64,000 nucleotides of DNA from an uncultured Gammaproteobacteria bacterium. Its GTDB lineage: Bacteria; Pseudomonadota; Gammaproteobacteria; Eutrophobiales; Eutrophobiaceae. This document shows, one piece after another, positions 514 to 3,921 of this stretch (position 1 is the stretch's first letter; each line of letters starts with the position of its first letter). The DNA lies in assembly GCA_963976795.1 (NCBI GenBank), contig CAXBLT010000006.1, forward strand, positions 81,791-145,790, given 5' to 3'. The position numbers and the translations under genes were made by a program. The notes under the pieces are model-generated. The model was given only the letters and a program-made list of their open reading frames with translations. It did no database searches and was not told where the DNA came from.

Positions 514-3500
514 TTAAAATTGATCATTAGGTGAATGTTTAATAGTGATGTTCTGAATTAACGTGTTACCTTCAGAATCTTCTGCTTCGATTGTGAGTTT
601 AATTGTTATTTCACTATTAGCTTGTATGCTCTGATTTGTATCAAAATACCGTAGCTTTCCGTCATTCAATATCTCAAATATTAATCCAATTCGATTTTTT
701 GATTTTGTATGTACTTCGTAAGAATCATCTTCGATACTATAATATACTTCATGCCCTTCGGCCGACTTAATGTGTTCATTTAAATTCAGCACATCAATCA
801 CGGCGCCGCCGGTACCGGCAGTTTCATATAGTTCGTCAAATTTCTTGGCTACATACAGTCCTGTAGTCCCTGTAATTTCCAATGTGAGATTCGCTTCGCC
901 GGATGAGCCATTAGAATCAACTGCTGTAACACTGATGATTTGTGTACGATCTTCATGTTTTGAGGTTGCGAAAGTCAACGTGCTACCGGATATGCTAATA
1001 GTATCACTAGAAGAATCATTTTTAAGCGTGACATCATAAGTCAGTTCATCCTTATCGGGGTAAGAAAAATAATCAGAAAGATTTATTTCATTATCAACTC
1101 CAGAAAATACCTTTAATTCACCATCTATTCCTTTAGGGGCACCGTTAAAAACGGTAATTGCGACTTTTCCCGTAACACTACCTTCATTAGTATCGGTCGC
1201 AATGAAGCTAATACTGCCTTCCCCTCTTTCATTAGCGCTGAATCTTAAAATCCCACTAGGGCTTATCGTCACTCTTCCAAAACCAGGCCCACTCTCAACT
1301 ACAGCTGACAGTTCACCATTATCAAAAGAATCTTTATCGTCAGTAACATATTGAGAAAGATCTAATTCATAACTTTCACCAACAGTTAATCCAATTTCTA
1401 CATTAAATAACTGTCCACTCACCACTGGAGGCTCATCGACGTCTATAACATTAATCTCAACCGTTTTTGAATCTTGTTCTTCACCGTCTTCGTTTCGTAA
1501 GAATATGTCGACATTAAGTTTTTTGTAGCCTTTATCGGATAATGCGTCTGGGTCGCAAGTAAAATCACCTGTTGATTGATCAATATCACAATCCAATGAT
1601 TCATTAGATTTCCATCCATAGATAACGCTGGTGTTATCACCTAGCTCCGCAGTCACTTTGAATTTAAGGGTTTCATTGTCATTTACTGTTAAGGAAATGG
1701 TTTCCTTATCGCTCGCATTCTGACCGGCAATCGTTTTTAATTTAGATGGTTTAGTTTCAATAGCAACTGACACATTCACAGAAGAAGTTGATTTCGCCTT
1801 ATTGCCTTCGTCTGTAACCTCAACACTCAAGGTGCATGTCTGTTCTTCCCCTGTCTCATTCTGCGGCGCAGTCCATTTGCCTTCTTTCTTATTAATTTCG
1901 AACTCACCATTACCAATCTCACCGTCACATGTTGCCGACCATGTATAAGTCAAACCAGAATCCGTTGCCCCTTCCCAATTGTTTGCTGAAACAACGACAG
2001 TGTCTTGTGACTTAACTTCTGTCGATTCCGCTTCGACGGAGCCGCCGCTTGGTGGAATGGCCACTTGACAAGTAACACCCGCATATCCAGCCGCACACGA
2101 ACAGATAGCTTCTGTCTCGCCGTTCGTACACTGCCCACCGTTTTGACAGGGTGAATCTGCACAGTAATCCGGTCTAGTAACATCAATATTAAACGTTAAC
2201 GTGCCCGAGAGTGAGGGATTGCCATCGTCCGTGGCGGTGACCGTGATCGGATGAGTGCCAGCATGTGCGGAGGTTGGTGTCCACGTAAATGCACCAGTGC
2301 CTGTATTAATTGCCATTCCCTTAGCCGCCGAGGCCGAGTCTATCGCGTAACTCAAGGTGTTGGCGGGTATATCAGGATCAGCACTGACCACTGCAAAAGA
2401 AAGTACCGTCGACGCTTCCACACTCGTGTCATTAATCGGGTTCAACGCAGGCGGGCTGTTGCTTTCGAAGACGCCAATGGAAATGGTTTCACGGTCGGTA
2501 ACAGCAGCGTTGTCGCTACGCGTGGCGACAACATCGAAAACGTAGGAGCCCGGGCCGTCGCTCTCGTCTGTCGTCCAAGAAAAAACACCGGTGCTCGGAT
2601 CGATGCTGGCTCCGTTAGGAACGGCACCTTCAAGCGAATAGACCGGGGGCGCGCTTTCGCCAGGCACAGTTGCTGAAGCGCTGAAAGTGAGGAGGCTATT
2701 CTCACTAATGGATTGATCGCCAATCATATCGAGAGTGATGGAAAGGGTGACCTCGACGCTAAAAGTGAAAGTGTCGCTGAGTGAGGGATTGCCATCGTCC
2801 GTGGCGGTGACCGTGATCGGATGAGTGCCAGCATGTGCGGAGGTTGGTGTCCACGTAAATGCACCAGTGCCTGCATTAATTGCCATTCCCTTAGTCGCCG
2901 AGGCCGAATCTATCGCGTAACTCAAGGTGTTGGCGGGTATATCAGGATCAGCACTGGTCACTGCAAAAGAAAGTGCCGTCGACGCTTCCACACTCGTGTC
3001 ATTAATCGGGTTCAACGTTGGAGGACTGTTGACTTCAGCAACTTGAACCGAAACCGTTTTTCTGTCCGTTAGCCCCGCATTACTACTATTCGTCACCACA
3101 ACATCAAATGTAACTGTGCCGGGACCATCAGTTTCGCTTGTTTGCCAACTAAACAGGCCAGTATTTGGATCAATTGACGCTCCGCCTGGAAGATTACCGG
3201 ATTTCCCATCTTCCAAACTATAAATAGGGGTTCCATTATCGCCTGGGATGGTAGCAGTCGCCGTGAAGTTAACTAGGCCATTTTCATTCACAATTTGATC
3301 GCTAATCGGATTTAACACGGGCGTAATGGATACCTGACAATTGTCACCTTCAAATCCAGGCTGGCACGTACATGAATAGTCATTAACGCCGTCGACACAT
3401 TGCGCTCCATTTAGGCATTGGTTCGAGGCACACTCATCAATATTAGTTTCACAATTCTGCCCTGAAAATCCAGCCGCACACTCACAGGTAAAAGCATTAA

Positions 3501-3921
3501 CGCCGTCGACACATTGCGCTCCATTTAGGCATTGGTTCGAGGCACACTCATCAATATTAGTTTCACAATTCTGCCCTGAAAATCCAGCCGCACACTCACA
3601 GGTAAAAGCATTAACGCCGTCGACACATTGCGCTCCATTTAGGCATTGGTTCGGAGTACATTCATCACTACACGCTGCCTCCGTCGTTGCACAAGTACTT
3701 GCAGAACATTCAAAAGGACTCTCATCAGGACAGCTAAGCGTAACCGTAAAAGTTAATGTCTTATCTGTGCCTTCCGTGATTTCTGTTTTTCCTTCTTTCT
3801 GCGTTATAGAAGCGACCTTTTTAACAACTTTAGCGTCAGCGGCCTGTGCATACATAGGGAAAGCCAAGACCAAAAAGAAAAGGCTGGAAAGAAAAAATCG
3901 GGATATGTTTTTCAAGAGCAT
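514..3921 (-). CDS. Large secreted multidomain adhesin (1135 aa). Signal peptide, 3 tandem calcium-binding EGF-like modules plus 1 further EGF-like module, Ig-like (He_PIG / dystroglycan-type cadherin-like) repeats, and cadherin-like repeats.
   Basis: N-terminal signal peptide [27 protein letters not shown]. Three near-identical 38-aa modules [39 protein letters not shown] match the cbEGF D-x-D-E-C pattern with 6 Cys. Repeated '...GASIDPxTGxFSWTxxESDGPG...' and '...[50 protein letters not shown]' units follow. A cadherin-like '[10 protein letters not shown]' motif lies in the C-terminal half. Confidence 0.85.
   Translation of the reverse strand: [1135 protein letters not shown]
2207..2460. 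repeat. Copy 1 of a near-identical 254-bp segment (about 97% identity to 2777..3030), embedded in an older, more diverged 570-bp in-frame tandem duplication inside the adhesin gene.
   Basis: The plus-strand shadow ORFs at 2251 and 2821 both start MSASMCGGWCPRKCTSACINCHSLSRRGR. DNA alignment of 2207-2460 against 2777-3030 shows only about 6 mismatches. The flanking parts of the 570-bp units match only at the protein level. Confidence 0.85.
2777..3030. repeat. Copy 2 of the near-identical 254-bp segment (partner of 2207..2460, offset 570 bp).
   Basis: Same evidence as for copy 1. Confidence 0.85.
3382..3723. repeat. Tandem repeat of period 114 bp, 3 copies (copy starts about 3382, 3496 and 3610). 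Each copy encodes one cbEGF module of the adhesin.
   Basis: Direct reading of the DNA shows 'attaacgccgtcgacacattgcgctccatttaggcattggttcgaggcacactcatcaatattagtttcacaattctgccctgaaaatccagccgcacactcacaggtaaaagc' repeated nearly identically. The third copy diverges at its distal end. Confidence 0.9.

Follow-up and report, generated by a model that had tools for sequence, protein, structure and literature searches.

Notch/Delta-type EGF modules on a perfect 114-bp in-frame repeat in a predicted exported protein of a marine gammaproteobacterium

Can a bacterial gene carry tandem epidermal growth factor (EGF) modules of the kind found in animal Notch and Delta, and has the number of these modules recently changed? 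This question is raised by a stretch of 64,000 nt of DNA from an uncultured marine gammaproteobacterium (here called the window; all coordinates are window positions unless the near-identical contig L001 is named). On its minus strand, an open reading frame (ORF; 514-3921) was called, the translation of which yields a protein of 1135 aa. From the sequence alone, it had been proposed that this protein is an adhesin containing three EGF modules encoded by a DNA tandem repeat. The explanation best fitting all observations, and in our judgment probably the correct one, is that this is a chromosomal gene of the bacterium for a large, Sec-exported, disulfide-rich, extracellular or surface adhesin-like protein, one EGF module of which was recently duplicated.

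The three tandem modules of 38 aa each (M1, M2, and M3, together referred to as the trio) are true EGF domains of the Notch/Delta type (hEGF). Irrespective of the module, the score for the Pfam family EGF (PF00008) exceeded the cutoff of 21.5 bits, which also holds for a fourth, mid-protein module (M4) that the original prediction had correctly listed as EGF-like (Table 1). With ∼35 bits each, M1-M3 also surpassed the cutoff of the hEGF family (PF12661; 29.3 bits). The cysteines of M1 are found at positions 88, 93, 99, 108, 110, and 119, and those of M2 and M3 at equivalent positions, which is the six-cysteine spacing of EGF domains. Thus, ORF, cysteine spacing, and both Pfam families bear out the proposed trio of six-cysteine modules in an adhesin-like bacterial protein. 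The interval originally given for it (3382-3723) does contain modules but was set ∼54 nt too far toward the 5′ end of the gene, thereby taking in the cysteine-rich segment that precedes M1 and missing the last 18 aa of M3.

Assignment to the calcium-binding subtype was less straightforward. Single modules of the trio scored only between 14.8 and 19.7 bits with the EGF_CA family (PF07645), and M2 and M3 jointly 26.8 bits, compared with a cutoff of 27 bits; for M4, EGF_CA was missing from the Pfam matches at E <= 10. Of two Notch1 modules taken from PDB alignments as controls, EGF12 passed (34.9 bits) and EGF21, which contains the consensus N-I-N-E-C, failed (19.2 bits). Because a module with calcium-binding consensus scores that low, the EGF_CA model is insensitive to the subtype of M1-M3. 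Failure of the EGF_CA assignment, which the original prediction had named as grounds for refutation, therefore neither refutes the subtype nor backs it. The ligand motif D/N-x-D/N-E/Q-C is present in M2 and M3 as N-I-D-E-C, whereas M1 reads C-S-D-E-C; the D-x-D-E-C start noted initially is thus right with regard to the general consensus but wrong in the first residue of the unit. The second motif, C3-x-D/N-x4-F/Y-x-C4-x-C5 (Asx ligand and packing aromatic residue), was found in M1-M3 but not in M4. Likewise, the whole trio was matched by the Asx-hydroxylation pattern, and two of its modules, M2 and M3, by a PROSITE-style EGF_CA pattern as well. Motif inspection yielded no O-fucose or O-glucose consensus site in any module; an EOGT-like string (C-x-x-G-F-S-G-x-x-C) is retained in M1 and M2. 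Judged by its motifs, the trio probably binds Ca2+.

The structure prediction suggested at the outset turned out in favor of an EGF fold. A PDB sequence search retrieved DLL1 (4xbm; E 2.9e-53), Notch1 (E 3.6e-47), and several EGF fragments of Notch1 and Notch2. An AlphaFold2 model of aa 28-205 (from an alignment of 30 sequences) reached a predicted local distance difference test score (pLDDT) of ∼97 over the trio, and Foldseek fitted the trio to EGF11-13 of Notch1/2 with a root-mean-square deviation of 1.4-2.0 Å over 116 columns (target TM-score 0.83-0.90). The predicted shape, an extended rod, is typical of pairs of calcium-binding EGF modules loaded with Ca2+. Compared with the Notch/Delta modules of known structure (Notch1 EGF11-13, PDB 2VJ3 and 4CUD; DLL1, 4XBM), the trio is alike in the six-cysteine spacing, the tandem packing of 38-aa modules, the motifs N-x-D-E-C and C-x-D-x4-F/Y-x-C-x-C, and the superposition of the predicted rod. 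It differs in being bacterial, in comprising three to four modules only (M4 included), in lacking O-fucose/O-glucose consensus sites and any DSL, LNR, or transmembrane context, in its fusion to bacterial Ig-like domains, and in the EGF_CA score just below the cutoff.

At the DNA level, Tandem Repeats Finder reported one array (3381-3667; period 114, 2.5 copies, 97% matches, score 546), and because there is no other tandem repeat in the 64 kb, this array is far beyond chance. A stretch of 273 bp within it is perfectly periodic and reads, in gene orientation, X-Y-X-Y-X, with an X of 45 bp and a Y of 69 bp; including the unique flanks P and Q, the full array is P-X-Y-X-Y-X-Q, and it contains two identical segments of 159 bp at an offset of 114 bp. 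The 114-bp repeat proposed for the trio is therefore real, but the DNA repeat spans only 2.4 units instead of three, as M1 has diverged at its N-terminus and M3 in its C-terminal half. M1 and M2 are identical in 109 of 114 nt, M2 and M3 in 90 of 114, and a recent in-frame tandem duplication would have given rise to M1 and M2.

Other assemblies contain the array in different forms. Contig L001 (ERZ3422114), a SPAdes contig with a coverage of ∼7, has P-X-Y′-X-Q, that is, two modules instead of three, Y′ being a Y unit with one synonymous CAG>CAA change. Its protein (P0001) is identical to that of the window save one missing 38-aa module, and over 4.15 kb of DNA, the single-nucleotide polymorphism (SNP) in Y′ is the only difference besides the missing unit. 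Further apparent SNPs at 3540-3547 were rejected as artefacts from aligning M1 to M2, which left this one as real. Three Tara scaffolds match the window by 99.97-100% outside the repeat, and each is interrupted by a gap of 100 N inside it. Two of them (L086 and L087; ERZ2783023) read P-X-Y-X-Y(10 bp)...100 N...(10 bp)Y-X-Q, the third (L088; ERZ2783025) P-X-Y(10 bp)...100 N...(10 bp)Y-X-Y′-X-Q, corresponding to at least three modules in either case. The junction Y-X-Y, which only arrays of at least three modules produce, is present in separate Tara contigs; it is thus real in the Tara samples, which must therefore contain at least three modules. The comparison with L001 may reflect a change in copy number between populations.

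How much of this apparent variation is biological depends on the assemblies. It is possible, if not what we favor, that the copy-number features arose in assembly, the path through the de Bruijn graph having run arbitrarily often around a 114-bp loop, in which case the three modules of the window and the two of L001 would be choices of the assembler, and the true number could be two, three, or more. That three scaffolds matching almost perfectly elsewhere are gapped exactly in the repeat, and that the two-module version stems from a SPAdes contig with a coverage of ∼7, is in line with this notion. So is the length of the periodic stretch, which by our reasoning exceeds a typical short read; because short reads cannot span it, the units of this perfect repeat cannot be counted from them. 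In contrast, the Y-X-Y junction, found in contigs to either side of the Tara gaps, speaks for arrays of three or more. Moreover, the single Y of L001 is marked by a synonymous SNP of its own, and L001 is therefore not simply the window allele in collapsed form. The same SNP, however, is also found in the last unit of the L088 array, and collapse of an L088-like allele could have produced L001.

If the copy number does vary between populations, unequal recombination or slippage between the identical 159-bp segments would lead to gain or loss of exactly one 38-aa module, which would change the length of the rod and not the expression of the gene. Surface proteins such as alpha C/Rib, Bap, and Esp owe their variable size to long in-frame tandem repeats of identical sequence. 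The locus is like these in that each identical DNA unit adds one whole domain, that identical units offer a substrate for recombination, and that the frame is kept. It is unlike them in that only 2.4 units are identical, in the fold (EGF and not Rib or Ig), and in the Gram-negative host; also, surface exposure is only predicted, and strain variation only putative.

Table 1. Features of the adhesin-like gene and its surroundings (window positions; scores in bits).
Feature	Position	Strand	Basis and remarks
Downstream partner gene, 5′ part	1..458	-	Runs from ~458 off the window start; Calx-beta 36 (cutoff 27)
Gene for 1135-aa exported multidomain adhesin-like protein (predicted)	514..3921	-	ORF; Pfam EGF, hEGF, He_PIG, Big_9, cadherin-like
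C-terminal half, aa 622-1135	514..2058	-	PKD-like match, then all-beta sequence; Pfam PKD 17, sub-threshold (cutoff 23.5)
EGF module M4, aa 584-621	2059..2172	-	Not calcium-binding type; Pfam EGF 37.3; no Ca-binding or Asx pattern match
Four Ig-like domains (He_PIG / Big_9 / cadherin-like)	2173..3327	-	Pfam
EGF module M3, aa 161-198	3328..3441	-	Full calcium-binding EGF consensus, C-terminal half diverged; Pfam EGF 42.3, hEGF 35.3, EGF_CA 19.7; PROSITE-style EGF_CA pattern
EGF module M2, aa 123-160	3442..3555	-	Full calcium-binding EGF consensus, N-I-D-E-C; Pfam EGF 41.3, hEGF 35.6, EGF_CA 19.2; PROSITE-style EGF_CA pattern
EGF module M1, aa 85-122	3556..3669	-	Asx/aromatic motif, no N-terminal D/N ligand (C-S-D-E-C); Pfam EGF 40.8, hEGF 35.7, EGF_CA 14.8; motif scan
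Perfectly periodic 114-bp stretch, 273 bp	3381..3653		X-Y-X-Y-X in gene orientation
Predicted Sec signal peptide, aa 1-27	3841..3921	-	Translation
tRNA cluster Pro(tgg)-Arg(tct)-His(gtg)-Lys(ctt)	4212..4632	-	Between cysS and adhesin gene

The remainder of the protein suggests what the trio might be part of. The N-terminus resembles a Sec signal peptide of the type typical for bacteria. After its removal, the mature protein would open with a short segment of low confidence (∼57 aa with four cysteines, modeled with a pLDDT below ∼60), followed by the rod of three Notch/Delta-type modules. With what appears to be the full set of calcium-binding EGF ligands at the M1-M2 and M2-M3 junctions, seawater Ca2+ should keep the trio rigid and extended, like EGF11-13 of Notch. 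Four Ig-like (He_PIG/Big_9) domains, an EGF module not of the calcium-binding type, and a C-terminal half of all-beta sequence would come next. The Ig-like region is an internally duplicated two-domain unit of 190 aa (a He_PIG/Big_9 pair) and contains a second internal DNA repeat (2177-2476 versus 2747-3046; 89% identical, 570 bp apart); its GC content is ∼55%, compared with a window mean of 41%. In the C-terminal part, neither Pfam nor NCBIfam yielded a family match, a recognizable anchor, or a secretion signal, and a scan for promoters and terminators around the gene found sites no more numerous than in shuffled sequence.

Public gene callers see a different protein. In P0001 and P0127, the start is placed at M23 (affecting 3853-3921, minus strand), which deletes the predicted signal peptide, and on the gapped Tara scaffolds (P0126) at V202, which deletes the entire EGF region. 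Because of these start calls, the database entries misrepresent the adhesin protein.

Export, a location at the cell surface, and an adhesive role are predicted for the protein. Like Ca2+-dependent adhesins of the BapA/LapF type, the locus encodes tandem cadherin-like and Ig-like domains and, within the gene pair formed with the downstream gene, a Calx-beta domain, and its NCBIfam matches are weak in nature (tandem-95 repeat, 49 versus a cutoff of 90 for the EGF protein). It differs from these adhesins by an N-terminal Sec signal instead of a C-terminal type I signal and by scores below the family cutoffs.

How unusual such a protein is among bacteria was assessed through its relatives. Searching for homologues of the whole protein yielded many EGF-rich proteins, four of which have 13-23 EGF modules, are 53-64% identical to the trio, and are all encoded amid bacterial genes: P0026 beside the gene for a sigma-54 activator; P0034, whose 509-kb contig also encodes GH77 and a 5′-3′ exonuclease; P0036 (GCA_001757125.1) near FtsX, NadE, ThyA-DHFR, and PEGA; and P0104 (GCA_964635815.1) near a Ser/Thr kinase with GAF domains and a fatty-acid desaturase. 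These proteins, which stem from metagenomes, share with the adhesin the hEGF-type tandem modules and the bacterial neighborhood but differ in module number (three plus one in the adhesin), and none is an orthologue. In P0007, EGF modules (15) are combined with He_PIG and Big_9, as they are here. Other searches gave the following: the whole protein has no relative in the GTDB species genomes, an exact 45-mer from the repeat unit has no match in JGI metagenome contigs, tblastn with the trio has none in 72,556 plasmids, a homologue search with the trio alone returned only short fragments (<= 65% identical), and exact look-up found neither the window protein nor P0127 on record. As far as we are aware and a literature search revealed, there is no functional study of any bacterial EGF array; the search found no paper dedicated to such arrays. 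The term rare in the original prediction was too strong in view of at least four other multi-EGF proteins in bacterial neighborhoods; bacteria with an EGF domain are infrequent but no novelty. One paper mentions about 40 "Notch-like" database entries from bacteria (PMC7649014).

Several observations weigh against the explanation favored here. The module counts of all available assemblies derive from short reads unable to span the repeat. For EGF_CA, the cutoff is narrowly missed, and the first position of the calcium ligands is absent from M1. Inspection of the protein revealed no anchor, no type I or type IX secretion signal, and no lipobox, neither candidate start codon is preceded by an obvious ribosome-binding site, and the AlphaFold2 model of aa 720-1135, although beta-rich, is uninterpretable (pLDDT 42). 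Finally, there is no characterized homologue, the best full-length match outside the locus being 43% identical over 34% of the protein.

The surroundings of the gene are bacterial. The window also encodes cysS, ppiB, lpxH, a TonB-dependent receptor, prpBC, and ppsA, along with numerous further housekeeping genes, with cysS located upstream of the adhesin gene on the same strand, and the locus was recovered in four independent contigs. The gene would be followed by its Calx-beta/EGF/cadherin-like partner and two further genes. That the gene at the window start encodes a Calx-beta protein, as stated initially, was confirmed (Table 1), and its complete product, available on L001, comprises 1500 aa with Calx-beta, two EGF-like modules, Big_9, cadherin-like, and He_PIG domains. 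Behind it, L001 carries genes for proteins of 180 aa (8185-8727) and 743 aa (8730-10961). Neither of the two has a Pfam or NCBIfam match, nor did searching PDB sequences produce a match for the larger one. The N-terminus of each is hydrophobic, and the 743-aa protein contains a YRIGVSWTYNF-like strand similar to the one that ends an outer-membrane barrel; this protein may be a partner for export or anchoring.

The adhesin cluster begins 290 bp past tRNA-Lys. The closest CysS proteins (70-84% identity) are from marine gammaproteobacterial metagenome-assembled genomes (MAGs), none of which carries the adhesin cluster at its cysS locus. Between tRNA-Lys and tRNA-Leu(tag), these related MAGs contain 0.56 to 5.8 kb, and because this interval varies among relatives, the cluster sits in a variable spot, which looks like an insertion hot spot. 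As is characteristic of a tRNA-linked genomic island, the cluster adjoins a tRNA gene and is missing from relatives. No integrase is among the annotated genes of the cluster, and the tRNA-Lys region shares no 12-mer or longer sequence (att-like repeat) with the final 470 bp of L001, which stop short of the cluster's far end.

Farther along, the window encodes two proteins from repeat families regarded as eukaryote-like, one of 156 aa with ankyrin repeats (11924-12394, minus strand) and one of 392 aa with Sel1 repeats (16027-17205, plus strand). The ankyrin-repeat gene adjoins a gene for a retropepsin-like aspartyl protease (171 aa; 12466-12981, plus strand; Pfam gag-asp_proteas, 86.8 bits). 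An EgtC gene is followed by an EgtB/SenA-like gene (9957-11869, plus strand), which together look like a biosynthesis pair of the ergothioneine or selenoneine type. Between lpxH and an ampE-like gene, a relative of REP-associated tyrosine transposases (Y1_Tnp) is encoded (7664-8350, minus strand; 64.6 versus an NCBIfam cutoff of 80).

Could the trio be a piece of animal protein put to use on a host? A host-mimicry effector, captured from a metazoan and engaging partners of the Notch pathway or the extracellular matrix of a eukaryotic host, would be compatible with the 50-62% identity of the trio to EGF modules of animal Notch, Crumbs, and fibropellin, with the ankyrin- and Sel1-repeat proteins, and with the position of a cluster missing from relatives in a variable spot beside tRNA-Lys. 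However, the multi-EGF proteins from bacterial neighborhoods are equally similar, and because animal and bacterial arrays do not differ in this respect, the origin of the trio cannot be placed. Moreover, Pfam detected no DSL domain, no module has the C2-x4-S/T-C3 site for O-fucose used in Notch-ligand contacts, and the contigs are Tara METAG scaffolds and a SPAdes metagenome contig without a link to a host. We therefore regard mimicry as unlikely. A bolder reading is harder still to credit: it takes the trio for a recently expanding and truly copy-number-variable binding tip, gained across domains from an animal or protist by a pelagic gammaproteobacterium, which, together with the Calx-beta/EGF/cadherin partner and the ankyrin and Sel1 proteins, would imitate EGF arrays of the Notch type or of the matrix and thereby adhere to eukaryotic hosts.

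The original prediction had also suggested phase variation, that is, a contingency locus switching the adhesin on and off. Beyond the existence of a perfect tandem repeat, nothing favors this. As the 114-bp unit corresponds to 38 codons within the ORF, each gain or loss keeps the frame and alters length only, not the expression state; accordingly, the two-module version on L001 is a complete ORF. The repeat also does not lie in a promoter, and a role as a switch is very improbable. Contamination by eukaryotic DNA or a chimeric join, for which nothing speaks beyond the animal-like type of the domain, can be dismissed, since a single ORF joins the EGF modules to the bacterial domains He_PIG and Big_9 behind a bacterial-type signal peptide, and this fusion recurs beside cysS and the tRNA genes in independent assemblies.

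The locus serves as a warning, because all available short-read assemblies show a perfect in-frame repeat of 273 bp in a broken, gapped, or possibly collapsed form, and copy-number claims based on MAGs are therefore unsafe at such loci. For the EGF family, this is a clean and well-modeled case of a bacterial protein, predicted to be exported, with putative calcium-binding EGF modules of the Notch type. At 114 aa, the trio is small, confidently predicted, and easy to express, which makes it a convenient test case for Ca2+ binding and the formation of rigid rods by bacterial EGF modules.

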